The position numbers were made by a program, and so were the translations under genes. Of a DNA stretch of 64,000 bases, positions 28,982 to 63,430 are shown piece by piece. The notes under the pieces were generated by a model that did no database searches, was not told where the DNA came from, and saw only the letters and a program-made list of their open reading frames with translations. How positions within the stretch are numbered: position 1 is the stretch's first letter; each line of letters begins with the position of its first letter. The DNA is from Escherichia phage 04086, in the sequence record OR842557; one strand, 5' to 3'.

Positions 28982-29010
28982 GTTTACAAGGTCTATAGGC
29001 ATGATACTAT
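28982..29010 (+). promoter_or_regulatory. sigma70-type early promoter cassette (GTTTAC-17-TACTAT) with flanking inverted repeat
   Basis: GTTTAC at 28982-28987 and TACTAT at 29005-29010; inverted repeat ggtctatag/ctatagacc around the -10. Confidence 0.6.
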
Positions 29011-29047
29011 AGACCTATCAAAACAAACTAACCGCACGGAAATCAAA

Positions 29048-29320
29048 ATGAAAACTTATCAAGAATTTATCGCTGAATCTATTCTTAATGAGGAAGTAAA
29101 AATTAACAAATCTGTTAAGACTATGATTGATGATATAAATCATCTCTATAACATCGATTTGACTAATCACGTAACTTTAGGCAATAAGCGAAACTTTTTT
29201 GTATTTGATACTTCAGAACTCGACCAGAATCAAATTAACAATATTGAACGTTTTGCTAATGAAAAAGGACTGCGTCACGAAACGGCTGGTTATAAAAAGT
29301 ATGCAATTTATCTAAAATAA
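29048..29320 (+). CDS. ipI: internal protein (IP) with capsid-targeting leader
   Basis: N-terminus MKTYQEFIAES is the T4 capsid-targeting sequence (gp21 prohead protease site after FIAE); in the T4 ipI position downstream of 57B. Confidence 0.7.
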   Translation: MKTYQEFIAESILNEEVKINKSVKTMIDDINHLYNIDLTNHVTLGNKRNFFVFDTSELDQNQINNIERFANEKGLRHETAGYKKYAIYLK

Positions 29321-29322
29321 TT

Positions 29323-29352
29323 GTTTACAACGGGCTCTAGTGGTGATACTAT
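29323..29352 (+). promoter_or_regulatory. early promoter cassette (GTTTAC-18-TACTAT) with flanking inverted repeat
   Basis: GTTTAC 29323-29328, TACTAT 29347-29352; inverted repeat gggctctag/ctatagccc. Confidence 0.55.
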
Positions 29353-29388
29353 AGCCCTATCAAAACAAATGAGTGATTGGAGAATAAA

Positions 29389-29574
29389 ATGAAACGTTGC
29401 GAATTAATTAGAAATGTTACTGCACTGGCCGCTGTTACTGCTTTTGGCTTTAGTATGTTTGCAGGATTCATGCTCGATATGCTTTCAACTTCCGAGAATA
29501 TAATCTCTTTAGTAGTGGCATTTTTAATTGGTTCAATCTCTTTTGTTATGGATAAAATCTCTAAAGGTGAATAA
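29389..29574 (+). CDS. small hydrophobic protein (predicted membrane protein)
   Basis: 61 aa from ATG 29389 with the cassette leader ...ggagaataaaATG; two hydrophobic segments. Confidence 0.5.
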   Translation: MKRCELIRNVTALAAVTAFGFSMFAGFMLDMLSTSENIISLVVAFLIGSISFVMDKISKGE

Positions 29575-29975
29575 TGAACGTTGAATATTATGTATATGCG
29601 GATTATGAAAATAATCCGTCTAAAGATGAAGATAACCGTTTAGGTGTTGATGCTTTTGAATCCCCTGCTGCAGCTTGGCAATGGGTTGAAAGTACTGATA
29701 TTCCTTACCGTTATATTGAAGTGGTAGACCATGCAGGAAACAAGTATCCTAAGGAAGCATATGTTCCTTCTGGAAAGGTAAATTTCCTTTTGTTCGCGGG
29801 TGATAACTACTATCCACGTGGTGGCTATACCGATTTAATCGCTAAAGCTGCCACTGAAGATGAACTACGTGAAATTGTTAAAGAAAACGAGAATAAGTTT
29901 CTTTACGGCTCCGATCGTTTTGACTGGTGGCAGATTGTTAATGCTAATACCCATACTATTGTAGACGAGGGTTAA
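29574..29975 (+). CDS. hypothetical protein
   Basis: 133-aa ORF; start overlaps the upstream stop; no recognisable motif. Confidence 0.5.
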   Translation: MNVEYYVYADYENNPSKDEDNRLGVDAFESPAAAWQWVESTDIPYRYIEVVDHAGNKYPKEAYVPSGKVNFLLFAGDNYYPRGGYTDLIAKAATEDELREIVKENENKFLYGSDRFDWWQIVNANTHTIVDEG

Positions 29976-30260
29976 ATGCTATACGTTAAGGTTACTAATC
30001 CAGAGAATGGATATAATTCAGACCAGGTTGCAGCAGAGTTACTGATTCGCAACTTTGGCAAAGATGCCGTGCTTGATGTTCAACAGGTTAATATTGGCCG
30101 TAGTTCAAGCGACGTTAAACTCAAAGTTAACGGCCAACGTTATAATTCTGTTAACTTTACTTTTTATACCGCAACTGAAAACGGATTGGTCGAATACGAC
30201 ATCTTTAAAAATCCTTTGAAGATTGCTTCTATTAAACTTGATTACATTAATATGCTTTAA
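29976..30260 (+). CDS. hypothetical protein
   Basis: 94-aa ORF immediately following the previous stop. Confidence 0.5.
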   Translation: MLYVKVTNPENGYNSDQVAAELLIRNFGKDAVLDVQQVNIGRSSSDVKLKVNGQRYNSVNFTFYTATENGLVEYDIFKNPLKIASIKLDYINML

Positions 30261-30389
30261 GAATTATGTGATATTATTACTCTATCATTAATACCCTCTA
30301 TTACCAAAGGTTCTTCCCTCAAAGAACCTTTCATAATAGACAAGGTCTATTAATTAAACTTACTTTACTTAATTTTATTTGAGGTGTCT

Positions 30390-30656
30390 ATGTTAGTATT
30401 AAAATTAGCTTTTTATGACCCTAAAACCAAGACAACAACTACCAAACGTTGTTCTATTTCATATGAATGTCAATTTGGCGAAGTTGAACGAGACGGCAAA
30501 GCCTTTATGTCAATAGCGGATTCCACATTCGCTAAACCAAAAATAATTCCACTAGTTAACGTTGCGGCTTATCTGGTTGCTCCTGAAGAAATGACTTATC
30601 ATACAATTCAGCACATGGCTAAAGATGATAATGCCCCTGCTGGATTTGTAATTTAA
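30390..30656 (+). CDS. hypothetical protein
   Basis: 88 aa from ATG 30390 (GAGG RBS); the ORF-track start at 30384 is a GTG. Confidence 0.5.
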   Translation: MLVLKLAFYDPKTKTTTTKRCSISYECQFGEVERDGKAFMSIADSTFAKPKIIPLVNVAAYLVAPEEMTYHTIQHMAKDDNAPAGFVI

Positions 30657-30661
30657 ATTAA

Positions 30662-30738
30662 GGCCCTGTAGCTCAATGGTTAGCAGCAGTCCCCTCATAA
30701 GGGAAAGGTTACCAGTTCAAATCTGGTCCGGGTCACCA
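30662..30738 (+). tRNA. tRNA with CAU anticodon (Met or Ile2)
   Basis: 77 nt; acceptor stem, T-arm accag-TTCAAAT-ctggt, anticodon loop cuCAUaa, encoded CCA; D-arm irregular and one acceptor mismatch. Confidence 0.6.
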
Positions 30739-30743: not shown

Positions 30744-30818
30744 GTCCCGCTGGTGTAATGGATAGCATACGATCCTTCTAAGTTTGCGGTCCTGGTTCGA
30801 TCCCAGGGCGGGATACCA
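30744..30818 (+). tRNA. tRNA-Arg (anticodon UCU)
   Basis: 75 nt; 7-bp acceptor stem gtcccgc/gcgggat, anticodon stem-loop cgatc-cuUCUaa-gtttg, T-arm cctgg-TTCGATC-ccagg, encoded CCA; T4 also encodes a tRNA-Arg(UCU). Confidence 0.8.
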
Positions 30819-31268: not shown

Positions 31269-31477
31269 ATGAAAACTTACAATGAATTTTTGACCGAACA
31301 ATCTAGTTCAGATGTAAAAGCCGCTGCGATTGCAGCAATTCAAGCAGGTAAATATTCTTACAAAGACGCCTCTGATGAAGAACGNNNAACAAGGTTGCCG
31401 CAAGGCATAGCCCCTTCCGAAAGGTTGGGGCTTTTTGGCATAATAAATAGATAAGTTAATTAACTTAGGAAATAATA
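31269..31477. repeat. N-flanked duplicated block (assembly artifact)
   Basis: NNN at 31385-31387; 31269-31384 equals 31478-31593 and 31388-31477 equals 31179-31268. Confidence 0.75.
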
Positions 31478-31986: not shown

Positions 31987-32541
31987 ATGAAACTTTTAAA
32001 ATATTTGAGTTGGGTTCTGTTGGTTCCACTGGATTTTATCTCTATGGTTCTGGCTGTTATCCTTGCGCCTTTTGTAGTTCCTTTCCACAATAAAAAGACC
32101 GGTAAATTGCCTTATGGCTTTGATTGGATGATGACATACGATAATCCAATTGACGGTGACAAAGGTCACATTAAACGTTGGGCTAAAATCAGGAAAATGC
32201 CAGGTGGTGTTTATCTCCAGAGAGTAGCTTGGCTATGGCGAAATAAAGCTTATAACTTTGCTTACCATAAACTCGGTCGTGATTGTAGCTCAGAATTCCA
32301 TTATCGTGGTAATCCTGACGTTGAATCCGGTTCTCCTGATAAAGCTCATCACGGGTGGTTATGGATGTGGAATGACGACGCCTGGGGTGTATTTGCTTCA
32401 GTTCCATATCTTAAGGTTGGTGGGATTACCTTTTACCTTCGCGTGTACTGTGGTTGGAAGCTTAAGAGCCTTTTGTCTCGTAAAATCCCTAAGGCCATGT
32501 TAGCCTTCCATGTAAACCCGTTCCGGTTCTACAAGAACTGA
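31987..32541 (+). CDS. hypothetical membrane-anchored protein
   Basis: 184 aa from ATG 31987; N-terminal hydrophobic helix (WVLLVPLDFISMVLAVILAPFVV); Trp-rich. Confidence 0.5.
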   Translation: MKLLKYLSWVLLVPLDFISMVLAVILAPFVVPFHNKKTGKLPYGFDWMMTYDNPIDGDKGHIKRWAKIRKMPGGVYLQRVAWLWRNKAYNFAYHKLGRDCSSEFHYRGNPDVESGSPDKAHHGWLWMWNDDAWGVFASVPYLKVGGITFYLRVYCGWKLKSLLSRKIPKAMLAFHVNPFRFYKN

Positions 32542-32545
32542 TTCT

Positions 32546-32575
32546 AGGCCCTTCCGAAAGGTTGGGCCTTTTTTG
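32546..32575 (+). terminator. intrinsic terminator (same cassette as 31200-31228)
   Basis: aggccc-ttccgaaaggtt-gggcct followed by TTTTTT. Confidence 0.7.
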
Positions 32576-32598
32576 TTTCTAAAAAGTTTAAAAAAGAT

Positions 32599-32627
32599 GT
32601 TTACTCTTTCGTAGAACATGATACTAT
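32599..32627 (+). promoter_or_regulatory. early promoter cassette (GTTTAC-17-TACTAT)
   Basis: GTTTAC 32599-32604, TACTAT 32622-32627, followed by the agacctatcaaaacaa leader. Confidence 0.55.
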
Positions 32628-32662
32628 AGACCTATCAAAACAACAGTGTGAAGGAGAGTAAA

Positions 32663-32926
32663 ATGGATAATTATGGTGAAGTGTTTAATTTCTTTATGAA
32701 ATGTGTTCCGGAAGAATTTGGTGCTACAGTTAACGATATTAAAGTTATCGGTCCTGAACACCCAGTGTATGAAACCTATGCAGTAATGGGTAATGAAGAT
32801 GGACAGTGGTATACAATTAAAGTTGTGATTAATATGTTCTCAGCTGAAGGCTACGCCAAATCGTCTACCAAAGTTTACCATGATAACGATTTTGATGCGG
32901 AAGATTATTTCAATAATATGAAATAA
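32663..32926 (+). CDS. hypothetical protein
   Basis: 87 aa from ATG 32663 with AGGAG RBS; the ORF-track start at 32648 is a GTG. Confidence 0.5.
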   Translation: MDNYGEVFNFFMKCVPEEFGATVNDIKVIGPEHPVYETYAVMGNEDGQWYTIKVVINMFSAEGYAKSSTKVYHDNDFDAEDYFNNMK

Positions 32927-32929
32927 AAT

Positions 32930-32959
32930 GTTTACATGGGCTCATGATTAAGATATTAT
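32930..32959 (+). promoter_or_regulatory. early promoter cassette (GTTTAC-18-TATTAT) with flanking inverted repeat
   Basis: GTTTAC 32930-32935, TATTAT 32954-32959; inverted repeat gggctcat/atgagccc. Confidence 0.5.
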
Positions 32960-32984
32960 GAGCCCATAATTTGAGGAGAACATA

Positions 32985-33383
32985 ATGAATATCGAAGATA
33001 AAGAAATGCAAGAGTTGTATAATTCATTAACACCTGAACAACAAAAATATGCCAAAGAATTAGAGAAAGCCCTTGCTTTCAACTTGGCAAAAACTGATTG
33101 GGCCGCGATGTATGAAGAAAAAACTAGATTAGAACTTGAAGCTGCTGAGAGAAATGAATGGATTGTCGAAACCAAGATTTCTGATGGTGGTTGCTCTGTT
33201 GAGGTGTCTGCTGTAATTAAAGGTACCCATGGCGAAAAATCATGGGGCTGGCATAATGAAGCAAACAAACATATTGTTCTCTCAACGTCAAAAACTTATG
33301 GCCAAAGGGTTCCTGTATCTAAAGCTATTATTAAGCAAGCTCAATGGGAAGCCAATGAAATTTGCCTCGCGAAAATGAAATAA
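32985..33383 (+). CDS. hypothetical protein
   Basis: 132-aa ORF with GAGGAG RBS. Confidence 0.5.
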   Translation: MNIEDKEMQELYNSLTPEQQKYAKELEKALAFNLAKTDWAAMYEEKTRLELEAAERNEWIVETKISDGGCSVEVSAVIKGTHGEKSWGWHNEANKHIVLSTSKTYGQRVPVSKAIIKQAQWEANEICLAKMK

Positions 33384-33387
33384 AAAT

Positions 33388-33417
33388 GTTTACAACCCTC
33401 AGAGGACAGGGTATAAT
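33388..33417 (+). promoter_or_regulatory. early promoter cassette (GTTTAC-18-TATAAT) with flanking inverted repeat
   Basis: GTTTAC 33388-33393, TATAAT 33412-33417; inverted repeat gaggac/gtcctc. Confidence 0.6.
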
Positions 33418-33460
33418 GTCCTCATGGATTACAAAACGTTAACCAACTGAAGGAAATACT

Positions 33461-34054
33461 ATGAACACTTTAAAGAAACTCGTTGAATTCATTCGTTCTA
33501 AACTGGGTACCGCAATGGCTCAGAACCTGTCAATTGAAGACCAGTATACTAAAGCTGCTTCTACCTTGATTGATAAAATCACTGAGCTCCAGACTGCCCA
33601 TGTTAAGTCTGTGAATGAAGAAAAACGTATTCGTGAACTCGCTAACGAAAAGGACCAACTGGCTAGTTCCAAAGAACGCGAAATTCGTAAACTGATTAAA
33701 GAAGGTGCCGATGTCCAGGTACATGCTAAACTCGGCCTCCTTTATCGTCGTACGGCTACTCAACTTCGTAAGAAAGCCGATGATTATGTTGAAATGCGTA
33801 ATGAAATTAAGCTTAAGGTCAAGGAACTTGATGACTCTCGCCAGGAACTAGCGGTTAAGCTTGAGTACATTCGTGAAACTCGTAATATGGCCGCCCTGGG
33901 TATTGCTACTGCCGATGATGTTGTTGAAATCGCTGCATTGACTAAGATTGATATTGAAGACACCCTGATGCGTGTAGAAACGTTTAAAGGCCCACAAGTT
34001 GGAATGGATACGACTTCTGCTGATATCGAAGACTACATTAATTCACTTAAGTAA
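33461..34054 (+). CDS. coiled-coil protein of unknown function
   Basis: 197 aa, strongly helical with heptad-like composition; no catalytic motif seen. Confidence 0.5.
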
Positions 34055-34061
34055 TGTTACT

Positions 34062-34084
34062 GGGAGACTTCGGTCTCCCTATTT
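34062..34084 (+). terminator. terminator-like hairpin
   Basis: gggagac-ttcg-gtctccc followed by a weak T-run (tattt). Confidence 0.4.
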
Positions 34085-34102
34085 GGAGGAGAGGAGAATA
34101 TT

Positions 34103-34639
34103 ATGAGCTTATATGATAATTTGATATCCAATATTGATTGGTTTAAAAATAGCGGTCTTTCCCATGAAACCAATTCAGTTCTTTATAGAATTCGCCAAGA
34201 CCTAGGCTATTCAAACGATTTCTTAAGCAGAACATCTAGCCGTGGCGATACTACCAAATTACCTTTTATTTTTGCTTTAGCTGAAGACCTTTCTTTTGAA
34301 GATGCTTTGGAAATTATTGACGTAAATCTGGCTATTCAACGAGTGGAATTCGCTGGACTACGTTATTCAGTATATTCTCTAAACGAGAGCGCTGATTGTG
34401 TGCTTCTTAATATGGCAGACGATGATTACCATTTAGTATGTTATGTAGCTTTAGAAAATGGTGATGTATTTGGAATGGTTGACCGCCGTCCATCTTACTC
34501 TGATATTAAAAATTATGATAAAGCCGAGCTTGGTATCTTAACTACTGAGTACACATTAGAAAGTCGTAAACAACAACGTAAGCTTAATCGTTTTATTGCT
34601 GAATGTCGCGAATACGCTAAAGAGGTTCAAAATGCATAA
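34103..34639 (+). CDS. hypothetical protein
   Basis: 178-aa ORF with strong RBS ggaggagagg. Confidence 0.5.
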   Translation: MSLYDNLISNIDWFKNSGLSHETNSVLYRIRQDLGYSNDFLSRTSSRGDTTKLPFIFALAEDLSFEDALEIIDVNLAIQRVEFAGLRYSVYSLNESADCVLLNMADDDYHLVCYVALENGDVFGMVDRRPSYSDIKNYDKAELGILTTEYTLESRKQQRKLNRFIAECREYAKEVQNA

Positions 34640-34985
34640 GCCTAGTAAAACCGACCCTGGTTACGCATTAGCAGATTATGATATAGCTATTTCCTTATTC
34701 CTCGGCATTGCTACTAGTATGACTGCAGGGATAATTGGATTTCTTGTCGGTGGGATTATTAATGGTATGCCTCGCCATCCGTTTGAAGATATGAGCCTTG
34801 CATGGATTTGGGTTCCGGCTTTAATAGGATTTTTTATCCCATGGGTCTTTGATATTGCCCAAACTAATAAAATAAACAAGCCACGTAAAAAGAGATATGC
34901 TTTAGCTATGGCTAATTATAATGAGTATGTAAAACAAACTAAACGTAATGACCTTGAAACCTTTATTAAGGAATGTAAATCATGA
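34632..34985 (+). CDS. predicted membrane protein with C-terminal FIKEC module
   Basis: 117 aa from ATG 34632; two hydrophobic helices; C-terminus ...NDLETFIKECKS resembles the C-terminus of ORF 39065-39652. Confidence 0.5.
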   Translation: MHKPSKTDPGYALADYDIAISLFLGIATSMTAGIIGFLVGGIINGMPRHPFEDMSLAWIWVPALIGFFIPWVFDIAQTNKINKPRKKRYALAMANYNEYVKQTKRNDLETFIKECKS

Positions 34986-35272
34986 ATAAAATTGAAATTG
35001 AAATCCCTGAATACAACAGCGCGCTGTCTGCAGAAAAGGCTATCTATGCTCTTCTGAATAAAGTGAATACCATCGAACATGAATGTGAAGCCATTGCCGA
35101 TAAGTATGGTATTCAATTCGGAACCGGTGATTATGGTTCAGGCCGTACATATTATCCTGTCGGTTATGAATGCTCCCAGTGGTTTAAAGATGAAATTGAA
35201 AACAATGGCGGTGAAGTTGAAAACGGTGTCGTTACAGTTGGTGCTTGGGTCTCCTCTTCGGCAATGTGCTAA
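34982..35272 (+). CDS. small protein, member 1 of the WxSSSxxC tandem paralog array
   Basis: 96 aa; ends GAWVSSSAMC; the next gene starts 9 nt downstream behind taaggaa. Confidence 0.6.
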   Translation: MNKIEIEIPEYNSALSAEKAIYALLNKVNTIEHECEAIADKYGIQFGTGDYGSGRTYYPVGYECSQWFKDEIENNGGEVENGVVTVGAWVSSSAMC

Positions 35273-35281
35273 GGAAACGCT

Positions 35282-35563
35282 ATGATGAATGATTACCGTA
35301 AAAATAAAGAGCTGGCTGAAGCAGTAAATGATATTCATAAAGCTATTCGTCGTGCTGAGGAAATTGCTAACAAATATGAGACTCATTTTAATATATACCC
35401 TGCTCGCGGTATGGGCGGTGACTATTATTCTCCTGGCGCCCTGAAAGCCGACCTTGCCCACTGGGAAGAATACGGTGAAGCTCAGTACGCTATTGTAAAC
35501 CAACATGATTACACTACCAGCCTAGAAAATGGTGGATGGGTATCCTCTTCTTCTGAATGTTAA
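35282..35563 (+). CDS. small protein, member 2 of the WxSSSxxC tandem paralog array
   Basis: 93 aa; ends GGWVSSSSEC; shares KY...YYxP core with member 1. Confidence 0.6.
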   Translation: MMNDYRKNKELAEAVNDIHKAIRRAEEIANKYETHFNIYPARGMGGDYYSPGALKADLAHWEEYGEAQYAIVNQHDYTTSLENGGWVSSSSEC

Positions 35564-35572
35564 GGAATTATT

Positions 35573-35770
35573 ATGTCTCGTGAACTAGATTGTGCAATCC
35601 GGACCGCTGCTGCGGCTATTGAAAACGTTATCCAGATTTGCAAAGAAGAACGTGAAGAAGCTGATATCTACATCGATGGTCAACGTGACCTGGAACGTCA
35701 TATCACGCTTTATAACGGTTGTATTACTATTAGTGGTACCTCTTGGGTGTCCTCCTCTTACGAATGCTAA
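35573..35770 (+). CDS. small protein, member 3 of the WxSSSxxC tandem paralog array
   Basis: 65 aa; ends TSWVSSSYEC. Confidence 0.6.
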   Translation: MSRELDCAIRTAAAAIENVIQICKEEREEADIYIDGQRDLERHITLYNGCITISGTSWVSSSYEC

Positions 35771-38070: not shown

Positions 38071-38083
38071 TTGCACAAAACAG

Positions 38084-38111
38084 TGTACAAGGTCTATAGG
38101 TGTGATACTAT
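38084..38111 (+). promoter_or_regulatory. early promoter cassette (GTGTAC-16-TACTAT) with flanking inverted repeat
   Basis: Near-identical to the 28982 cassette (caaggtctatagg...gatactatagacctatcaaaacaa). Confidence 0.5.
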
Positions 38112-38148
38112 AGACCTATCAAAACAACAGAGTGAAATGGAGAATAAA

Positions 38149-38361
38149 ATGAAACTTTCTAACCAAGCAATCAACATGTTAAACGAAGTTCGTGCAGCTG
38201 GTGCTAAATGCCTGATGGTTAACACTCGTGACGGTGACCTTCGTCAAGCATTTGGTGAATTGAAATCTGCTGACCTGGTTAAATGTTCAGTTGGTATTGG
38301 TAACGCACTTCGTGTATCCTTATCTCCTAAAGGTAAAATGTACTTTTTCAACAAAAAGTAA
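38149..38361 (+). CDS. hypothetical small protein
   Basis: 70 aa from ATG 38149 with the cassette leader gagtgaaatggagaataaaATG. Confidence 0.5.
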   Translation: MKLSNQAINMLNEVRAAGAKCLMVNTRDGDLRQAFGELKSADLVKCSVGIGNALRVSLSPKGKMYFFNKK

Positions 38362-40327: not shown

Positions 40328-40335
40328 TATAAATA
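40328..40335 (+). promoter_or_regulatory. T4-type late promoter (TATAAATA) upstream of the HNH gene and lysozyme
   Basis: Exact plus-strand TATAAATA 5 nt upstream of the HNH ATG and about 730 nt upstream of e. Confidence 0.45.
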
Positions 40336-40340
40336 CCCGT

Positions 40341-41093
40341 ATGAATTATTTAAAAATATATGAATCTTTAATAGAATCCACTATTAAAAGACCTCACATA
40401 TGTGGGTACACCGAAAAACATCATATTTTACCGAAATCGATGGGTGGTAGTGATTCTATTGATAACTTAGTCGACCTCACCGCCCGAGAACATTTTATTG
40501 CACACCTATTATTGGCACGGATTTTTAAAAATCGCGAAATGTGGTCCGCTGTATATATGATGGCTTCAACAAGCTTGTCAAACTCTGACAGACATAGATG
40601 TTCATCGCATTTGTACGAATTATTGCGAGAACGTGCATCAATATATAATTCAGGTGAAAATTCTCCAAATTGGGGAATTAAACGTTCCGAAGAAACACGA
40701 TTAAAAATGTCAATTTCGAAAATGGGTTCCAAAAATCCAATGTATGGGATTCCTCAATGCTCGGAACACACCAACAAAATTAGTCTTGGTGTTATTGAAG
40801 CTTTTAAAAATCCGGAAATAAAAGAGCGACATAGGCAAAGTGTTTCCGGGGAACTCAATGGGTTTTATGGAAAGAACCATTCCGAAAAAAGTTTGGAAAA
40901 ACAACGGAATGCAAAACGGAAAGGATTTCCTTGGGACAATTATTCAGAATTGTACCCAATTTGGGTTTCATTAAATTGTCCCAAACATCCAACATTCACA
41001 AATGAACTTGTTAAATTGGGATATCCTAAAAAGAAACTTGTTCGAATAGTGGAAGAATTTAAAAATGAATATCTTCGAAATGTTACGCCTTGA
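40341..41093 (+). CDS. HNH homing endonuclease with NUMOD-like repeats
   Basis: [10 protein letters not shown]...[32 protein letters not shown] plus repeated SxxxxGxxNPMYG-type modules; the 3' end overlaps the lysozyme start by 29 nt. Confidence 0.8.
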
Positions 41094-41553: not shown

Positions 41554-41558
41554 AAGCA

Positions 41559-41587: not shown

Positions 41588-41615
41588 AGACCTATCAACT
41601 ACAGGAGATTAAAAA

Positions 41616-48847: not shown

Positions 48848-48875
48848 AGACCTATCAACTAATGAGGAGAACAAT

Positions 48876-52380: not shown

Positions 52381-52404
52381 AAGGAACCTTAGGGTTCCTT
52401 TTTT
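52381..52404 (+). terminator. intrinsic terminator
   Basis: 8-bp stem aaggaacc-ttag-ggttcctt followed by TTTTTT. Confidence 0.7.
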
Positions 52405-52423
52405 GGGTTTAGTGCAAAAAAGA

Positions 52424-52452
52424 GTTTACACCCTCGTAGAGCATGTTATTAT
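52424..52452 (+). promoter_or_regulatory. early promoter cassette (GTTTAC-17-TATTAT)
   Basis: GTTTAC 52424-52429, TATTAT 52447-52452, then agacctatcaaatctactgagtgaaatggagaata leader. Confidence 0.55.
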
Positions 52453-52489
52453 AGACCTATCAAATCTACTGAGTGAAATGGAGAATATA

Positions 52490-53470
52490 ATGTTAACTAT
52501 CAAAATCAACAAAGGTATCTATCGCGGTAATGAAATCTCTGGTACGTTCATGAGTTCAGGTAAAACCTGGTTCCCTAATAAAATTCATGAATCTGAAGCT
52601 CACCTCGGCGATGGTAAGGTATTTGTACAGATTGACGGTGTTGAACGTGGTGTATGGGTGTTCAAATGTGACGTTGAAATGGAAGGTGCTGAAGCTCCTG
52701 TAGTGGTTACTGAATCCGCTGAAGAAATGAAACATCGCATCAACAAACGTTTTAAAGTAATGAACATGATGACTAACGGAATCATCGATGGTAAAATTCG
52801 TTCCCTTATCATCTCTGGTGCCGCAGGTATTGGTAAAACGTATTCTTTGGATAAAGCATTACAGAATGCCCACGAAAATGAAACTATCGAATATAAATCA
52901 ATCAACGGAAAGATTAGTGGAATCGGTCTTTACGAGCAGCTTTGGAATAACCGCGGCCCTAATAGTGTTCTTCTTATCGATGATGTTGATGTATTCTCTG
53001 ATATGGATATCCTGAACCTGTTAAAAGCAGCATTGGATACCGGTGAAAAACGTAAGGTGTGCTGGAGCACTTCAAGTTCTTACCTCGATGATAAAAATAT
53101 CGATAAAGAATTCGAATACGAAGGCACCATCGTGTTCATCACCAACGTTGATATTGACCGTGAATTAGAGCGTGGAACTAAACTTGCTCCACACCTCCAG
53201 GCTTTAGTATCTCGTTCAGTTTACTTAGACCTCGGAGTTCACTCTAACGAAGAGATTATGGTTCGTGTTGAAGACGTTATCCTGTCTACTGATATGATGC
53301 AAAATCGAGGTTTGACTGATTCTGAGACTTATCAAGCTTTAGCATGGATGAAGGCTAATGTATCTCGTCTTCGTAACGTATCATTACGTACAGCTCTTTA
53401 TCTGGCGGACTTCATCGCCACCGATAAAAATGACTGGAACGAAATCGCTGAAGTTACACTTCTGAAATAA
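52490..53470 (+). CDS. P-loop NTPase (Walker A and B) of unknown function
   Basis: 326 aa from ATG 52490; Walker A ISGAAGIGKTYS and Walker B VLLIDDVD; N-terminal domain of about 110 aa without motif. Confidence 0.6.
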   Translation: MLTIKINKGIYRGNEISGTFMSSGKTWFPNKIHESEAHLGDGKVFVQIDGVERGVWVFKCDVEMEGAEAPVVVTESAEEMKHRINKRFKVMNMMTNGIIDGKIRSLIISGAAGIGKTYSLDKALQNAHENETIEYKSINGKISGIGLYEQLWNNRGPNSVLLIDDVDVFSDMDILNLLKAALDTGEKRKVCWSTSSSYLDDKNIDKEFEYEGTIVFITNVDIDRELERGTKLAPHLQALVSRSVYLDLGVHSNEEIMVRVEDVILSTDMMQNRGLTDSETYQALAWMKANVSRLRNVSLRTALYLADFIATDKNDWNEIAEVTLLK

Positions 53471-53824: not shown

Positions 53825-53853
53825 GTTTACATCTCCAGTAGAAATGATACTAT
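53825..53853 (+). promoter_or_regulatory. early promoter cassette (GTTTAC-17-TACTAT) with inverted repeat that includes the downstream RBS
   Basis: atctccagtag ... ctactggag arms; the 3' arm contains the GGAGG RBS of ORF 53880. Confidence 0.6.
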
Positions 53854-53879
53854 AGACCTATCAACTACTGGAGGTTATC

Positions 53880-54404
53880 ATGAACGCTAAAGATATTTTT
53901 TCACTGATTAATTTCAACAACGGTAATTTCAAATCTGAAAAACAAAGCAAGTTCTTTAACGATGTTGCTTGTGGTAATGAGATTACCGTATCCGGAGGAG
54001 AGATTTACAAAAGCCGTTGGAACTGGATTGCAGTTATCGATTCAGTTGGTATTGTAGAGCTCTATAAAAACACTAACAAAAAACGTACTCTTCACTGGAG
54101 TCGTGAAACCAATCAGGCTTATCAAGCTGAACGTAACAAACGTTTAATGCCTACCGAATCTGACCTGGCAAACGTTAAATCTGATATCGCTTATTTCGAT
54201 AATCTGATTGCTGAACAACAAGCTGTTATTGATAAGTTTGACGAAATCAAAGCTTGTAAAGAGATTCCTGAATTCATGCGGGAATCAGTAAATGAACAGT
54301 ACGCCCTCACTTCAGGTCGTATCGAGCAGTACAAATCACAACGAGCTGAACGCCAAGCTCTGCTTCAGAAATTTGAAGAGCGTTTAAAGACGGTTCTCGC
54401 ATAA
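53880..54404 (+). CDS. hypothetical protein
   Basis: 174-aa ORF behind the cassette RBS. Confidence 0.5.
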   Translation: MNAKDIFSLINFNNGNFKSEKQSKFFNDVACGNEITVSGGEIYKSRWNWIAVIDSVGIVELYKNTNKKRTLHWSRETNQAYQAERNKRLMPTESDLANVKSDIAYFDNLIAEQQAVIDKFDEIKACKEIPEFMRESVNEQYALTSGRIEQYKSQRAERQALLQKFEERLKTVLA

Positions 54405-54421
54405 ACGCTTTATACCAAGGA

Positions 54422-54430
54422 TGGTATAAT
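54422..54430 (+). promoter_or_regulatory. extended -10 promoter (TGgTATAAT)
   Basis: TGGTATAAT about 38 nt upstream of ATG 54468; no clear -35 hexamer. Confidence 0.45.
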
Positions 54431-54467
54431 GGTTCTAGGTTCTTAATTACTTACTGAGGAAATTATT

Positions 54468-55313
54468 ATGTCACAGGCAATTAATCAAATTCGTTCTGAA
54501 GTTAAAAAGGTTATTAAATTTGGTCGTATTCCACTGAATAAAGAAGTGGTTGAAAAGGTTTTGGCCATGATGTGGGAAAAGTTTGAAGTTTGTATTTCTG
54601 TAGATGAATTCACTAAAATCTTTGACAAGACTAAAGGTTTGTTTACGTTAGAAGACCGAGTCATGAAATCTCTTCACAGGGCAGGTATGTTGACTCGTGC
54701 TAACGCCAGAATTATTCTTAGAAATTATAACAAAGGCTACGACCTCTATGGTCGTTTAATCCCGGCGATGTCATTTGATGAAGTTGTTAAAGACCTTCGT
54801 ACTAACCAACGTCGTTTACTAGCACTGGGTGCTCGTCTGGCTTTAGGTAAAGATAAGCAAATGCCATTTAAGACTAATGGTTCAGGCGATTGGATTATCT
54901 TTAATATTGTCAACCAACCAGGTAACGAAAACGAGTATCTTACTTCAACTTTTAGTGGTTGTCAATATGACAATTGGAAATTCCATCTTCGACTGGCTTT
55001 GTCCGAACTCGAACGTAGCGGTATTCTTACCTTCGATAATGTTAATACCAGTACAGGCTGGCGTATTAAACTTGTTAAGCCAGGTAATGAAGTTAAAAGT
55101 CATTCAGAACAAGCTCCTAAACCAGAACCTGTACCAGTGCGCAGCAATGAGAAGCATCAAGCCCAGATTGAGTATTTTAGCAATTTGCTTACTTGCCTGA
55201 ATGTTACAATCCAACAACAAGATGATGAGATTTTCCGACTCTCTGGTCTGAATGCTAAAGCTAAGGCTGAACGTCAAAAATATATCGATATCCTAAATCT
55301 TCTTAAGGATTAA
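54468..55313 (+). CDS. hypothetical protein
   Basis: 281-aa ORF; N-terminus MSQAI shared with ORF 63470 through a common leader. Confidence 0.5.
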   Translation: MSQAINQIRSEVKKVIKFGRIPLNKEVVEKVLAMMWEKFEVCISVDEFTKIFDKTKGLFTLEDRVMKSLHRAGMLTRANARIILRNYNKGYDLYGRLIPAMSFDEVVKDLRTNQRRLLALGARLALGKDKQMPFKTNGSGDWIIFNIVNQPGNENEYLTSTFSGCQYDNWKFHLRLALSELERSGILTFDNVNTSTGWRIKLVKPGNEVKSHSEQAPKPEPVPVRSNEKHQAQIEYFSNLLTCLNVTIQQQDDEIFRLSGLNAKAKAERQKYIDILNLLKD

Positions 55314-56390: not shown

Positions 56391-56420
56391 GTTTACATCC
56401 AAGGATGGATGGAGTATAAT
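56391..56420 (+). promoter_or_regulatory. early promoter cassette (GTTTAC-18-TATAAT)
   Basis: GTTTAC 56391-56396, TATAAT 56415-56420; leader ctactgaggagaatatcATG. Confidence 0.6.
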
Positions 56421-56447
56421 CTTTTTAAATCTACTGAGGAGAATATC

Positions 56448-57458
56448 ATGACTCGTACTGAATACATTAATGCCTTTACTACTTATATCACTGCCAATAC
56501 CCCTCCATTAACCCCATATGTGGTAATAGTTTCTAATATCAATAAATGGGTCGACCAAATTGATGATGCATTATCGCGCTGTTTCAAAGCCGAAATCGAA
56601 AAGATTGCAGGCCGTTTGTGCATTCATGATATCATTAAAACATTTAAAGGTTCTCGACTGCTTTCGCGACTGGTCAATAAGGACATCCTTTCAGAGTTTG
56701 GCAAAGAGAAACATCCAGGTTCCAGCCATGTTGTTAACTACAAATGGTTTGGTGATACCATAAAAAGTTATATCAAAATTAAAGGTATGGACCCTAGTAG
56801 TTTATTTCCGCAACGTTGGGTTACCGAATTCAAGGCTAACTCTGCATTAATTCTCAAAGCGGCCTCTAAAACTATAGTTTCCGGTGATTGTCGTACTATT
56901 CACCCGATGGCTAATTGCATGATTAAAACAAATAGTTATAAAGGAAAAGCTATTATTTCTGTTATTTGGTCACCTAATAGGAAACCTAAAGATGATGCAG
57001 AAGTTGTAAAGTATCAAGATATTGCTTACGATACCTTGAATACTATCGAACAAGCTTTAGCTCTGATGGATACCGTAGAGAAATATGAGACCCAAGAAGT
57101 TAAACACCACTTAGGCTGGAAAGGATATGAAGTCTTAGTAACAGTTCGCGAAATCAAATGTACCGTTCCAAAAACTGATGCTGAAATTTACCAAGAAAAA
57201 TGTGAGGAAATTGTGAACACTGATAAAGAGCCTGCTACATTAGAAGATTTGATTAACGACTTGAACAGCCCTATCATGGCCCCTACACCAATTACTAAAT
57301 CCAAGTTACCAGAAGTCGTTGCCTTAGAAAAAGCGTATAAAGATGCCCTTGCTATCAACAAAAAACTGGCCGGGCAATATACTGCTGCCAAGAAACTTTG
57401 GGAAGAGTCTACCAATCGTTTAGACCGTCTTGAACAAGCTCTGGAGCTGTTGAAATGA
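56448..57458 (+). CDS. hypothetical protein
   Basis: 336 aa from ATG 56448 with GAGGAG RBS; C-terminal coiled coil. Confidence 0.5.
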   Translation: MTRTEYINAFTTYITANTPPLTPYVVIVSNINKWVDQIDDALSRCFKAEIEKIAGRLCIHDIIKTFKGSRLLSRLVNKDILSEFGKEKHPGSSHVVNYKWFGDTIKSYIKIKGMDPSSLFPQRWVTEFKANSALILKAASKTIVSGDCRTIHPMANCMIKTNSYKGKAIISVIWSPNRKPKDDAEVVKYQDIAYDTLNTIEQALALMDTVEKYETQEVKHHLGWKGYEVLVTVREIKCTVPKTDAEIYQEKCEEIVNTDKEPATLEDLINDLNSPIMAPTPITKSKLPEVVALEKAYKDALAINKKLAGQYTAAKKLWEESTNRLDRLEQALELLK

Positions 57459-58627: not shown

Positions 58628-58704
58628 GCCATGGTATGTCGCTCGGTGGGAAACTACCGAGCCAGAGGAACCGGTTTACAACGATTCCGAAATAGAGTAT
58701 AATG

Positions 58705-59138
58705 NNNTTGTTGGCCTTTATTTCTGGTTGGTGCTTCATTCTGGAACTTCAAATGATTGAATTAAACGAACAAACCATTTTTCTAGGTGATGGTACCGAA
58801 GATGACCTGGAATATAAACTATACGAATATATGGTTTGGCTGGCTAAAGCAGAAGGTATAGACTTTGCTGTAGCTCACCCGTATGGCGAGAACACCGTTG
58901 TAATAGGTGGCACCGCTTATGAAGTCCAATGGCAATACGTTGGGCTTGAATCTGAAGAATTTGAAGAAGATGAACATGGCGATTGGCATCCAGTCGGCCC
59001 TTGGTACTGGGAACACGGTGAACCTGATTTTGAAGTAAGTAGTTGGTGGTGTGACCGTTAAGCCATGGTATGTCGCTCGGTGGGAAACTACCGAGCCAGA
59101 GGAACCGGTTTACAACGATTCCGAAATAGAGTATAATG
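58705..59138. repeat. N-flanked duplicated block (assembly artifact)
   Basis: NNN at 58705-58707; 58708-59138 repeats 58274-58704 exactly. Confidence 0.75.
59108..59137 (+). promoter_or_regulatory. early promoter (GTTTAC-18-TATAAT)
   Basis: GTTTAC 59108-59113, TATAAT 59132-59137 (same element at 58674-58703 in the first copy); upstream of small ORF 59178. Confidence 0.55.
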
Positions 59139-59177
59139 AACCTTCAAACAATGATTTAATCGATATGGAGTTTGGAT

Positions 59178-59351
59178 ATGAGTACCAAAATTGAAGTTGG
59201 CCGTCATAAAGGCCGTCTGATTGAACATTCACTTTATGAATTGTCGGATTCGGGTTCTTTACCTGACCTAGAATCCGATTTGATTAAATCTGCAGCCGAT
59301 TATATTCATTGGCTTGAAGCTCAACTTCGCTTTTCCGATGAGGCCTTCTGA
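59178..59351 (+). CDS. hypothetical small protein
   Basis: 57-aa ORF below the track cutoff; stop overlaps the next ATG. Confidence 0.35.
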   Translation: MSTKIEVGRHKGRLIEHSLYELSDSGSLPDLESDLIKSAADYIHWLEAQLRFSDEAF

Positions 59352-59864: not shown

Positions 59865-60938
59865 ATGCAAGATTTCGGACATTGGGCGGTATTTGAAGAA
59901 ACCGATATTAAAAACCATATTGGATTTGTATACGTAATCACTTTTGAAGATGGCAAAAAATATGTAGGTGCTAAAAAGATTTGGAAACGAATTAAAGCTG
60001 CACCTTGCACATTTAAACGCGGCCCTAAAAAAGGATTTGAAGAATCTGATTGGAAAACCTATACCTCATCATCTAATGAACTAAACGCAATGATAGAAAA
60101 GGGTATAAGTCCTAAAGAGTACCTTATTGTAGGATGGTATCCTACTTGGGGTAAAACTCTTATGGCAGAAATGGAAATGCAATTAGCCAATGATGTTTTA
60201 CGAGACCCTATGTGGCTTAACAAGCAAATTGGCGGACATTTCAACCCTAACTGCTTTGACGATTTAACCGAAGATGATATTGCAAGATGGATGGAATTTG
60301 ATAAAGGGAACGAACATGTTTCCTGGCCTATGATGTACAAAATCGGTCAGAAAACCAAATATGTTAAACCTGACGAAGTTGGCAAGTATATTAAATCTGG
60401 GTGGCAATTTGGTCGTTCTAAAACAGAAAAACATTCTGTTACCTATAATTGCTCTAAATTTACTATATGGGACTATCAAGAAAATAAAGCAGTGGAAGTT
60501 CTAAATCAAAATGAGTTTGCTCGTAATAATGATTTAAGTAGCAACCATCTAACTAGACTACTTCAAGGAACTCTCGACCTTATTAAAGATCGCTGGGGAC
60601 TTCCACCAGATATTGCTCGTCAGCGTTATAAATTTCAGGACGTTTCTTCAGGAACAAAATTTTTATCTAATTCTGAGTTAGAAGAATTTTACGGTATGAC
60701 TCGCGGTCAGGCTAACAAAGCCGTTAAAGATGGAAGAGCCGTTAAATTGGTAGTCGAAAGCAAAGAAGACCACATTAAAAAACTTGGCTCTATCGAATTG
60801 GTAAAAACCGAAAAGACAAAAGTTACGTCTCAAGTAATGCTTAACAGTTTTAAAGATATAGTTAATCCTATGACCACTGCCGAAAAATCAGAAATGATTG
60901 AATGGTTGGAAAGTTATATAACTTATTTGAAATCTTAA
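59865..60938 (+). CDS. GIY-YIG homing endonuclease (Seg-like)
   Basis: N-terminal IGFVYVITFEDGKKYVGAKK is a GIY-(10)-YIG core; long basic C-terminal putative DNA-binding region. Confidence 0.75.
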   Translation: MQDFGHWAVFEETDIKNHIGFVYVITFEDGKKYVGAKKIWKRIKAAPCTFKRGPKKGFEESDWKTYTSSSNELNAMIEKGISPKEYLIVGWYPTWGKTLMAEMEMQLANDVLRDPMWLNKQIGGHFNPNCFDDLTEDDIARWMEFDKGNEHVSWPMMYKIGQKTKYVKPDEVGKYIKSGWQFGRSKTEKHSVTYNCSKFTIWDYQENKAVEVLNQNEFARNNDLSSNHLTRLLQGTLDLIKDRWGLPPDIARQRYKFQDVSSGTKFLSNSELEEFYGMTRGQANKAVKDGRAVKLVVESKEDHIKKLGSIELVKTEKTKVTSQVMLNSFKDIVNPMTTAEKSEMIEWLESYITYLKS

Positions 60939-61901: not shown

Positions 61902-61902
61902 T

Positions 61903-61931
61903 GTTTACTTCCTCTCCTCACGTGTTATAGT
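61903..61931 (+). promoter_or_regulatory. early promoter cassette (GTTTAC-17-TATAGT) with inverted repeat that includes the downstream RBS
   Basis: arms cctcacgtgtt ... aacacatgagg; the 3' arm contains the GAGGAG RBS of ORF 61961. Confidence 0.5.
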
Positions 61932-61960
61932 CTATCCTATCAACACATGAGGAGACCATT

Positions 61961-62143
61961 ATGACTATCCAAGATAAAGAAATTAAAGCCGACCAGTATT
62001 ATTTGGTAAATGGGCGTGCGGTTCGTGTAATTGCTGCTAGCGATTCAGACGTATGGTACCGTGTACTAGACCATAGAAATATTCCATTGATGGTATGTGA
62101 CCGTAGTTTGTTTTGTTCGATAGCTAAGGAAATCAAATTATGA
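61961..62143 (+). CDS. hypothetical protein
   Basis: 60-aa ORF. Confidence 0.4.
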   Translation: MTIQDKEIKADQYYLVNGRAVRVIAASDSDVWYRVLDHRNIPLMVCDRSLFCSIAKEIKL

Positions 62144-62394
62144 GCCTGAAATTACATTCAATGAAAAATGTCGTCACCCTTAATCTTGATGATGAGCGCC
62201 TGATTTTTCTCACCGTCACTGATAAGAATATTGAAATTGCAAATGGTCCTAAGACTTATTGTTGCCCAGTGAAGAATTGGAAACATGTAACCTTTTTGAC
62301 CCTGTGCGACCGTCTGAAAGATATTAAGTTGGATTTGGATATCAAAGATATCCAGTACATTAAAAATCTTATTGGATACAAACTGCTGAGGTAA
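62140..62394 (+). CDS. hypothetical protein
   Basis: 84-aa ORF overlapping the upstream stop. Confidence 0.45.
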   Translation: MSLKLHSMKNVVTLNLDDERLIFLTVTDKNIEIANGPKTYCCPVKNWKHVTFLTLCDRLKDIKLDLDIKDIQYIKNLIGYKLLR

Positions 62395-62396
62395 CT

Positions 62397-62690
62397 ATGG
62401 GTAAAACTATTCGTCGTAAAGAATTGTCTGTAAAAGATTTTTATTATTCCGGACGTCGTAAAGCACCTGACGGCGTAAGTCAGGAACTGGTTGAAGAAAA
62501 TATCTTCCGTTCTGACAAGTGGAAACGTATGAGAGGCGTTGATTCTGAAGTTAAGAATGAAATGAACCGCCAGCTTCGTAAAGAAGTGAGAAAGCTGAAA
62601 AAAGATGTTTACAACGACGATGAACCTGATTACAATACTTCTCATCAAGTTGCAAAACGTAAATCAAACGAGTGTTATCGTTACAGCTGA
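62397..62690 (+). CDS. hypothetical basic protein
   Basis: 97 aa; Lys/Arg-rich. Confidence 0.45.
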   Translation: MGKTIRRKELSVKDFYYSGRRKAPDGVSQELVEENIFRSDKWKRMRGVDSEVKNEMNRQLRKEVRKLKKDVYNDDEPDYNTSHQVAKRKSNECYRYS

Positions 62691-62703
62691 GGAAAATATG
62701 AAT

Positions 62704-63068
62704 NAGGCGTTGATTCTGAAGTTAAGAATGAAATGAACCGCCAGCTTCGTAAAGAAGTGAGAAAGCTGAAAAAAGATGTTTACAGCGACGATGAACCTGA
62801 TTACAATACTTCTCATCAAGTTGCAAAACGTAAATCAAACGAGTGTTATCGTTACAGCTGAGGAAAATTTAAATGAATCCTGAATCTAAATTATCACAGC
62901 GAATTGCTGAAGCTCGTCGTCAGTTCTTTGAAAATATGATAGCCCAAGGTATTGATGACGAAGTTTTTCTGAACTGGTTTTGGAATCACAAATATTCAAG
63001 TTGCTCAGGTGCTTTGTTAATTTCCGCAGCAATGATGTACGAAGNCTATCGTTACAGCTGAGGAAAAT
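62704..63068. repeat. N-flanked duplicated blocks (assembly artifact)
   Basis: N at 62704 and 63045; 62705-62870 is a variant copy of 62540-62697 and 62871-63044 a copy of 63201-63374. Confidence 0.75.
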
Positions 63069-63200
63069 ATGAATATCAAACGAATGCTTTTTAAGCAAGG
63101 GTTGTATACTTTAAATATCAGTCCAAAGGGCGATACAACCACGTGGTCAGTAAATGACTGGATTAAATTCATTGATAAACACGGAAACTGGAAAATTTAA
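63069..63200 (+). CDS. hypothetical small protein
   Basis: 43-aa ORF (MNIKRMLFKQ...) behind GAGG RBS. Confidence 0.3.
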   Translation: MNIKRMLFKQGLYTLNISPKGDTTTWSVNDWIKFIDKHGNWKI

Positions 63201-63401
63201 ATGAATCCTGAATCTAAATTATCACAGCGAATTGCTGAAGCTCGTCGTCAGTTCTTTGAAAATATGATAGCCCAAGGTATTGATGACGAAGTTTTTCTGA
63301 ACTGGTTTTGGAATCACAAATATTCAAGTTGCTCAGGTGCTTTGTTAATTTCCGCAGCAATGATGTACGAAGGCTGGAAAGGTGCAATGAGTCAAAAATA
63401 G
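63201..63401 (+). CDS. hypothetical protein
   Basis: 66-aa ORF; a truncated duplicate at 62873-63061 is an artifact. Confidence 0.45.
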   Translation: MNPESKLSQRIAEARRQFFENMIAQGIDDEVFLNWFWNHKYSSCSGALLISAAMMYEGWKGAMSQK

Positions 63402-63430
63402 TTTACAAACTCTTGGGACCAGAGTATAAT
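63401..63430 (+). promoter_or_regulatory. early promoter cassette (GTTTAC-18-TATAAT) with flanking inverted repeat
   Basis: GTTTAC 63401-63406, TATAAT 63425-63430; inverted repeat ggacc/ggtcc; leader ctgaggaaattattATG shared with 54468. Confidence 0.6.

Follow-up and report, generated by a model that had tools for sequence, protein, structure and literature searches.

We analysed a 64,000-nucleotide (nt) stretch of Escherichia phage 04086 (OR842557; the window) and describe 16 recurring cassettes in its early region, each built around a GTTTAC-like -35 box and a TACTAT- or TATAAT-like -10 box. It is quite probable, in our view, that these cassettes are sigma70-dependent early promoters of a T4-like Dhakavirus and that those with a common core are coupled to stem-loops insulating the gene downstream. 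Four of the stem-loops are predicted to cover the Shine-Dalgarno sequence (SD) of the following gene.

Recurring promoter-like cassettes in the early region

The motif GTTTAC-N15-19-TAYWAT has 17 matches, each of them on the + strand in the interval 28982-63813, compared to 0.40 expected, and none of 100 shuffles reached 17. Chance as the source of the motif excess, and of the hairpins presented below, is ruled out by these shuffle statistics. The -35 and -10 boxes of the matches are separated by 16-17 nt, in agreement with the spacing of ~17 base pairs (bp) that belongs to the definition of promoter early stem-loop (PeSL) elements. An earlier note on this DNA had counted about 17 such cassettes before accessory open reading frames (ORFs). 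The recurrence was real, but the count was inflated by assembly duplicates: the pairs 58674/59108, 62607/62778, and 63401/63784 represent one site each, and three of the 17 matches are not independent, because each run of N examined in the window sits at the joint of a tandem duplication. Their removal leaves 14 strict unique sites, and two further ones, 38084 (-35 box GTGTAC) and the degenerate copy 61904, complete the set of 16 distinct cassettes.

A profile built from the related copies delineated a tighter family with nine strong members (28982, 29323, 32599, 38084, 41559, 44175, 48819, 52424, and 53825) and a degenerate tenth at 61904, with no comparable match in 1-28.9 kilobases (kb) and none on the other strand. 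Both motif and profile searches found the cassettes to be absent from 1-28.9 kb, where virion and late genes are located; all of them lie in the early region, which is rich in insertions and deletions (indels) relative to five related genomes. Common to ten of the 16 cassettes is the core GATACTATAGACCTATCAA or a close variant of it, a near-invariant block of 19 nt that runs from the extended -10 through the discriminator into the first few bases of the transcript. Six early promoters of the region lack it. The anatomy of the cassettes comprises an A-rich upstream tract, the GTTTAC -35, a TGn element (flagged at core-family sites), the -10 (TACTAT or TATAAT), a short leader, the SD, and the start codon. 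Most cassettes are indeed intergenic and precede genes, 13 of the 16 being located in spacers of 57-121 nt with an SD and an ATG downstream, while, in our gene models, the cassette at 56391 directly adjoins the stop codon of the gene before it.

As had also been noted before, near-identical copies are found kilobases apart: 41553-41618 and 44169-44234 share 94% identity over 66 nt, and the stretches at 28990 and 38091 match each other as well. The arms ATCTCCTGTAG/CTACAGGAGAT, the second of which contains the ribosome-binding site, are present at 41565/41599 and 44181/44215 and, with one mismatch, at 53831. The candidate cassettes are listed below; z-scores compare the fold from the -35 to the ATG with 200 dinucleotide shuffles.

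28982-29050, + strand: core-family early promoter before an internal-protein-like gene (MKTYQEFIAE leader); hairpin AGGTCTATAG/CTATAGACCT over the -10 and discriminator, z -4.9
29323-29391, + strand: core-family cassette before trna.4; variant core TAGCCCTATCAA; hairpin GGGCTCTAG/CTATAGCCC, whose 5' arm matches the changed core base, z -1.9
32545-32665, + strand: intrinsic terminator (32545-32573), then core-family cassette (-35 at 32599) before e.8; no internal hairpin, z -0.4
32930-32987, + strand: non-core T4-type early promoter; 13-bp hairpin over the -10, z -5.5
33388-33463, + strand: non-core early promoter before e.6; 7-bp GAGGAC/GTCCTC stem round the -10, not significant overall, z -1.0
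38083-38151, + strand: core-family cassette with -35 GTGTAC; hairpin AGGTCTATAG/CTATAGACCT as at 28982, z -3.1
41559-41618, + strand: core-family cassette before denV; 11-bp hairpin with 5' arm in the spacer and 3' arm over the SD, z -6.2
44175-44234, + strand: core-family cassette before regB; SD-covering hairpin as at denV, z -3.8
48781-48878, + strand: intrinsic terminator (48781-48806; 11-bp stem and T run), then core-family cassette (-35 at 48819); weak spacer-SD pairing
52381-52492, + strand: intrinsic terminator (52381-52400), then core-family cassette (-35 at 52424; -10 TATTAT) before nrdC.10
53825-53882, + strand: core-family cassette before nrdC.8; hairpin ATCTCCAGTAG/CTACTGGAGGT over the SD, with compensatory differences from that at 41559, z -3.6
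56391-56450, + strand: non-core early promoter before nrdC.4; small spacer hairpin, weak SD pairing, z -0.9
59108-59180, + strand: non-core early promoter before a pin-like gene; no hairpin; copy at 58674-58704 is an assembly duplicate ending in NNN
61903-61963, + strand: degenerate core-family cassette before a 55.6-like gene; 8-bp SD-covering hairpin TCTCCTCA/TGAGGAGA, z -6.5; outside the pattern of the earlier note
62607-62636, + strand: promoter-like match in an ORF; motif kept in T4 at the syntenic position; assembly duplicate at 62778-62807
63401-63472, + strand: non-core early promoter before a 55.2-like gene; 8-bp hairpin round the -10, z -2.1; copy at 63784-63855 is an assembly duplicate

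The promoter assignment is supported by comparison with other genomes. In T4, a matching promoter motif is present at 14 syntenic places, in the same order, for 14 of the 16 cassettes, and the T4 denV promoter has a core and a hairpin identical to those of the window. Most T4 sites carry a related block, TACTATACAACTATCAAC, after the -10. The exact 19-mer core occurs in about a dozen copies in each of several ~170-kb genomes (IMG/VR hits, 62 loci). The T4-like anatomy, the restriction to the early and accessory region, and the synteny with T4 agree with the early-promoter identity put forward in the earlier note; promoter activity in phage 04086 is inferred.

Stem-loops and terminators

Seven of the 16 sites (28982, 32930, 38083, 41559, 44175, 53825, and 61903) have hairpins with z-scores of -3 or below, and two more (29323 and 63401) are marginal at about -2. 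At the remaining seven (32599, 33388, 48819, 52424, 56391, 59108, and 62778), the fold z-scores revealed no hairpin beyond shuffles. The -10 had been described as usually enclosed by an inverted repeat, which is thus the case for about nine of the 16 sites and fails for the others. Intrinsic terminators are located 13-25 nt upstream of the -35 at 32599, 48819, and 52424, which are exactly the three hairpin-less core cassettes. All ten core cassettes are therefore coupled to a stem-loop, in one of three arrangements: (a) a terminator just upstream (32599, 48819, and 52424), (b) a hairpin with the -10 and discriminator as its 3' arm (28982, 29323, and 38084), or (c) a hairpin with the spacer as its 5' arm and the SD as its 3' arm (denV at 41559, regB at 44175, nrdC.8 at 53825, and the 55.6-like gene at 61904). 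Neither a hairpin nor an upstream terminator was found in four of the 16 cassettes.

We propose that each cassette marks the beginning of one early transcription unit and that ten of the 16 represent a homogenised subfamily with the shared 19-nt core, the stem-loop of which would insulate the downstream gene from transcription coming from upstream. In arrangement (a), the intrinsic terminator directly upstream of the promoter would serve this function. In (b), the 3' arm lies in the -10 and discriminator, so that the hairpin would form in read-through RNA only and might lead to attenuation or 3'-end protection. In (c), RNA started at the cassette would lack the 5' arm and be translatable, whereas read-through RNA would have a paired SD and is predicted to be silent; the GGAG of the paired SD would also escape RegB. 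The ~60-bp scattered near-repeats would moreover trade sequence among themselves, with some indels adjoining cassettes.

Predicted gating of the ribosome-binding site

For arrangement (c), we folded read-through RNAs starting 60, 120, and 250 nt upstream and RNAs starting at the cassette, the latter with +1 placed 7 nt after the -10, in three downstream contexts of different coding length. At denV, regB, nrdC.8, and 61904, the predicted probability of the SD being unpaired was 0.00 in read-through RNA, for all modelled upstream starts and coding lengths, compared to 0.09-0.66 in cassette-started RNA. A weaker drop was predicted at 48819 (0.60 to 0.07) and at 56391, and the other cassettes were unchanged. 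These are SD-only probabilities, adopted in place of the mean accessibility over 17 nt including the A-rich spacer, which showed little contrast between the RNAs. The cassette transcript lacks the 5' arm because this arm lies in the -35/-10 interval, and any start downstream of the -10 leaves it out. That a transcript from the cassette promoter would leave the ribosome-binding site free while read-through would sequester it had been suggested in the earlier note; the prediction that four cassettes gate translation by promoter choice holds up well in silico and comparatively.

Comparison of orthologous promoters showed that the arm pairing is kept while arm sequences change. T4 ipI, regB, and nrdC.8 have hairpins of the same class as their window counterparts with other arm sequences (z -5.4, -5.8, and -4.3, respectively). 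The regB promoters of six lineages all have a hairpin with its 5' arm in the spacer, of which three or four cover the SD, and their arm sequences are as unlike as ATCTCCTGTAG, TTTCTCCTCTTTAT, and TTCCTCTTGAC. Among the denV promoters of about 20 lineages, the anti-SD arm is found in the spacer or in the -10/discriminator, in at least ten distinct sequences. The duplex between a denV promoter and its own SD region had a mean energy of -13.8 kcal/mol compared to -10.1 kcal/mol for mismatched pairs, and none of 20000 permutations reached the observed mean. In 61 distinct core-family cassettes, the SD helix had a covariation score of 0.252 versus 0.169 after shuffling (0 of 500), and all slid controls were lower. 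These comparisons support selection on a single-strand structure that would cover the SD; if gating holds in vivo, it explains why promoter spacers co-vary with ribosome-binding sites.

A more far-reaching version would be that T4-like early promoters routinely hold an anti-SD arm within the promoter, placed in the spacer or in the -10/discriminator and conserved by covariation across the Tevenvirinae, and that denV, regB, and nrdC.8 are translated only from their own early transcripts. We put this forward tentatively, as a proposition that could well go either way and that we lean slightly against. If it were true, the three genes would be silent on read-through from upstream middle and late units and their SDs would be shielded from RegB. 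The cassettes would then be the early-promoter counterpart of the device known from the T4 genes e, soc, 49, and I-TevI and, together with the upstream terminators, each would be an expression insulator. Gating of the SD by an early promoter is not described in the PeSL papers (PMC2839356, PMC4122927) or in a review of T4 post-transcriptional control (PMC3014915).

Several observations weigh against the interpretation of the cassettes as insulated early promoters. It is drawn from sequence and predicted folds, and the start site is a model assumption. Two cassettes lie inside coding sequence; the 62607 match is within the ORF 62397-62690, and the T4 orthologue of the 59108 promoter is located in coding sequence. 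Six or seven cassettes have no significant hairpin, and the hairpins of arrangement (b) are not followed by a U tract, so that a terminator function is putative there. With regard to gating, even the cassette-started leaders are no more than part-open in the model (SD unpaired 0.1-0.66), and denV pairing is weak in some lineages, for example L103, L114, and L120. The spacer-SD complementarity (CTCC/GGAG) is partly generic, as mismatched pairs already reach about -10 kcal/mol, and the covariation controls only partly remove kinship among the sequences.

Recombination and module boundaries

The cassette copies exchange sequence with each other, as seen from cassette halves that occur in different combinations in different genomes: of 22 spacer types, 7 stand before at least two genes, 9 of 22 genes have at least two spacer types, and in one genome (L057/L094) nrdC.8 is preceded by the 5' arm of another cassette, which breaks the hairpin. 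Such exchange is expected because near-repeats of ~60 bp are scattered through the region. As in the PeSL model, the cassettes might therefore be mainly recombination linkers, exchange between the copies moving promoter-plus-gene modules, possibly via mini-circles such as those shown between PeSLs in RB49 and phi1 (Arbiol 2010, PMC2839356). This explanation, which would account for the uniformity of the cassettes and for the plasticity of the region, deserves attention, yet we consider it doubtful in view of the following junction analysis.

After de-duplication of the region, 83 genes were called, and the 150-nt flanks of each junction were checked, junction by junction, for adjacency in five relatives. 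Collinear blast chains were set aside for this purpose, as the PSD2002 chain skipped a block from 32003 to 35743 even after de-duplication. Insertions with both flanks conserved were found at 5 of 14 cassette junctions compared to 5 of 68 other gene junctions (p=0.011), and at 32599, 41559, and 44175 the -35 is preceded by a breakpoint at a distance of 6-18 nt. However, when the cassette junctions were compared with non-cassette spacers of at least 40 nt, insertions were not enriched (5/14 versus 3/12, p=0.44), nor was disruption of any kind enriched relative to the other junctions (8/14 versus about 33/68). Switches of the closest relative are common throughout the region and not enriched at cassettes (p=0.41 versus other junctions, p=0.12 versus all positions).

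The position of the inserts likewise speaks against linkers. Genes inserted in relatives are mostly flanked by the upstream gene and a single cassette, not by two cassettes, and other indels are bounded by other short repeats, such as a 22-nt SD/leader repeat at one IME08 insertion or the internal-protein leader, or are homing-endonuclease genes, as is the case for two window-specific insertions. Furthermore, the cassette positions are syntenic with T4, and the sites are therefore old and stable. Indels beside promoters would be equally expected if the ends of transcription units merely tolerate insertions. The denV gene (41616-42023) is itself a mosaic: other Dhakavirus genomes share 96-100% identity with its promoter and first ~100 nt, the middle (41720-41950) is nearer to another T4-like lineage (L096/L098, 75-92%), and the 3' end is Dhakavirus-like again. 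A swap of denV, the protein of which is 95% identical to that of another lineage, at the cassette is ruled out, as the crossovers lie inside the gene. The earlier suggestion that cassettes coincide with module junctions thus finds partial support: insertions are in excess relative to gene junctions in general but not relative to other long spacers. A module-boundary role is possible but unspecific, and any causal part in recombination is inferred.

Transcriptional alternatives for the stem-loops and the core

Returning to the insulated early promoters, it might be argued that the stem-loops act on transcription only, as terminators or attenuators, and that the SD overlap in the four copies is incidental. 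In RB49, a PeSL stem-loop lowered downstream lacZ expression to an extent similar to that of the rrnB T1 terminator (Arbiol 2010, PMC2839356); three cassettes of the window have true intrinsic terminators just upstream, and the hairpins of arrangement (b) do not touch the SD. The SD-covering hairpins, on the other hand, have 23-nt loops and are followed by A-rich, not U-rich, sequence. Moreover, denV and regB orthologues keep the SD complementarity while the 5' arm shifts between the spacer and the -10/discriminator. A mobile 5' arm with retained SD complementarity is expected for SD occlusion and not for termination, and we regard an exclusively transcriptional function as unlikely.

Alternatively, the invariant core after the -10 (here AGACCTATCAA, and ACAACTATCAAC at most early promoters of T4) might be a site for a protein or for a modification-sensitive contact of RNA polymerase that controls rapid shut-off or boosting of early promoters, with the inverted repeats as part of this site. 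We find this improbable. The core is conserved far beyond the needs of a -10, a related block follows the -10 in T4 early promoters, extra consensus regions exist in these promoters (PMC2988021), and their shut-off is incompletely understood (PMC3014915), but a candidate binding protein is lacking, six early promoters of the region do without the core, its uniformity could equally stem from copy exchange or selection for a strong promoter, and the arms vary freely while pairing stays, which points to single-strand structure rather than a fixed duplex site.

Genome context and assembly

The best matches of the window were the Dhakavirus genomes PSD2002, Bp7, IME08, and AnYang, with 93-95% identity over a coverage of just 67-80% (megablast with 40-50 kb query, 723 phage records). 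By this similarity, the window is assigned to a T4-like Dhakavirus of the JS98/IME08/Bp7 group. Its segment from 28 to 64 kb, in which the + strand carries every gene, matches the T4 early region in annotated relatives, with equivalents of 57B, internal proteins, trna.x, tRNAs, e.x, nudE, e, denV, vs.x, regB, tk, mobD.x, nrdC.x, pin, nrdH, and 55.x. In T4 naming, the cassettes extend from ipI via denV, regB, and nrdC to 55.x, and the genes associated with them according to the Bp7 and IME08 annotation are ip, trna.4, e.8, e.6, denV, regB, nrdC.10, nrdC.8, nrdC.4, pin, 55.6, and 55.2. The annotation of ESCO10 (L067, OM386655.1) was left unused, since its product names do not line up with the genes; a 590-nt gene at the position of gp3, for instance, is labelled "terminase large subunit", and ORFs of 300 nt are labelled "DNA ligase".

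The window contains ten runs of N (at 2816, 3096, 22809, 23070, 28499, 31385-31387, 58705-58707, 62704, 63045, and 63769). At each run examined, i.e., all but 2816 and 3096, an exact tandem duplication of 98-431 nt meets. The duplications are not present in Bp7 or PSD2002, and we regard them as assembly artefacts, because the subject coordinates of these genomes run backwards at the joints in blastn alignments. The segment from 62.5 to 64 kb consists of shuffled, overlapping pieces. Overall, the window gives the impression of contigs or reads that were put together with their overlaps left unmerged, and repeats close to Ns are untrustworthy.

An Rfam search yielded two tRNA genes, at 30662-30735 and 30744-30815 (50.9 and 48.8 bits), and nothing else, which rules out a known RNA family as the identity of the cassettes. 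In the tRNA interval, relatives annotate Met and Arg, sometimes Asn, tRNAs; the size of the interval varies among them, and in AnYang it holds a homing endonuclease gene.

Neighbouring genes

The genes at 29048, 42066, and 42434 share their first ~25 coding nt (ATGAAAACTTAYCAAGAATTTAT, MKTYQ(E/Q)FI), a leader typical of T4 internal head proteins, and indels relative to IME08 in the interval from 57B to trna.4 are bounded by this leader repeat. An HNH/NUMOD3 homing-endonuclease gene (40341-41093) is inserted directly after TATAAATACC at the locus 40328-41093. A 357-amino-acid ORF (59865-60938) encodes a SegE-type GIY-YIG endonuclease domain; Bp7 has this ORF, and four relatives have a shorter, unrelated segment. 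The 244-amino-acid ORF after regB (44698-45432) has no Pfam match and is found in PSD2002 and not in Bp7, IME08, AnYang, or ESCO10.

The gene nrdC.6 (54468; region 54405-54484) is preceded by GCTTTA-N12-TATAAT, which resembles a middle promoter with a MotA box and not the GTTTAC type. Over the 32 nt with the SD and the first five codons (MSQAI), nrdC.6 shows 94% identity to the 55.2-like gene (63470; 63455-63486); beyond this shared start, the proteins diverge. The shared start had been read as one carried by two cassette copies; the identity was reproduced, but 54468 has no GTTTAC cassette.

Comparison with known systems

PeSLs combine a stop region rich in AT with a sigma70-like early promoter, a stem-loop mostly in the -35/-10 interval or over the -10 (five positions within or beside the promoter are admitted), and an SD with ATG; they lie in plastic regions beside indels and form mini-circles (Arbiol 2010, PMC2839356). 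They were extended to T4/PST, with the promoter consensus TTTACW-N17-TAYWAT, and to KVP40/nt-1 (Comeau 2014, PMC4122927), so that they have so far been described for the pairs RB49/phi1, T4/PST, and KVP40/nt-1 (PMC2839356, PMC4122927), JS98 being mentioned just for PeSL-like sequences near g43 (PMC2839356). Translation and SD sequestration have no mention in either paper. The resemblance of the cassettes to PeSLs, pointed out in the earlier note, fits the published definition: they are composite intergenic elements made of the same parts, clustered in plastic early regions with some indels next to them, and the PST/T4 consensus is essentially the motif found here. A stem-loop at the promoter is present at seven sites with z-scores of -3 or below and at two marginal ones, and three sites have an upstream terminator. 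In contrast to the known PeSLs, the cassettes belong to another lineage, their core is much longer (19 nt), their stems are not of the G-run/C-run type of RB49, and the association with indels is not specific after control for spacer length. This comparison tempers the claim of cassettes as preferred recombination points, since they are no better in this respect than other long spacers here.

Separately, denV homologues of jumbo phages (L122-L125, ~350-kb contigs, positions ~330-400) are preceded by TTGAC overlapping a G-rich/C-rich hairpin with a T run, then TATAAT, i.e., an RB49-style PeSL layout in which terminator and -35 overlap, here in phages of a very different group.

PeSL-type cassettes would also be the regulatory unit by which the early region is organised in coliphages of the JS98 type (Dhakavirus), which are widely used in therapy collections. 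For annotation, this provides 16 starts of early transcription units, three terminators, and a warning on duplicated joins in the assembly.

The cassettes also share the sequence features of T4 early promoters, which are composed of UP, -35, TGn, and -10 elements with further consensus regions (Hinton 2010, PMC2988021). They have a UP-like A tract, GTTTAC, TGn, and the -10, and the synteny extends to 14 of the 16. Activity, which in this promoter class begins immediately upon infection, is known only for T4 orthologues such as denV and mobD.5, where 5' ends were seen by primer extension (Durand 2006, PMC1702504). They differ in the core, which is AGACCTATCAA here and ACAACTATCAA in T4, and in the greater uniformity of the copies.

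A further parallel concerns the internal-protein-like genes, which share a leader and of which the IME08-relative indels are bounded by the leader repeat and the adjacent cassette. Recombination at conserved flanks of internal-protein loci in T-even phages was reportedly described by Repoila and colleagues in 1994 (cited in PMC2839356). The likeness is limited to the internal-protein genes.

The closest functional precedent for arrangement (c) is provided by the T4 genes e, soc, 49, and I-TevI, in which the SD is sequestered and an internal late promoter is present (Uzan and Miller 2010, PMC3014915). The GGAG of early SDs is cleaved by RegB, and structure blocks this cleavage (PMC3014915). Bp7 has the classic T4 lysozyme device, in that the hairpin over the gene e SD (ATACCTCCT/AGGAGGTAT) has a 5' arm overlapped by the late promoter TATAAATA; gene e of the window starts with MNIFEMLR as in T4 and lacks a Bp7-type SD hairpin. 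As in the known device, the SD of the window cassettes is predicted to be paired in upstream-derived RNA, and the promoter lies within the hairpin, so that its own RNA would be free of the 5' arm. The known internal promoter, however, is late (TATAAATA) and delays translation until late, whereas here an early sigma70 promoter precedes denV, regB, nrdC.8, and 55.6 and is predicted to confine translation to early, promoter-proximal transcripts. On the + strand of the region, TATAAATA occurs at 40328 and 48018 only, which places the cassettes outside the late-promoter set. The cassettes would work like the e/soc/49/I-TevI device but are not members of it, because their internal promoters are of the sigma70 early type. 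If the gating holds in vivo, it carries this classic T4 mechanism from late to early genes.

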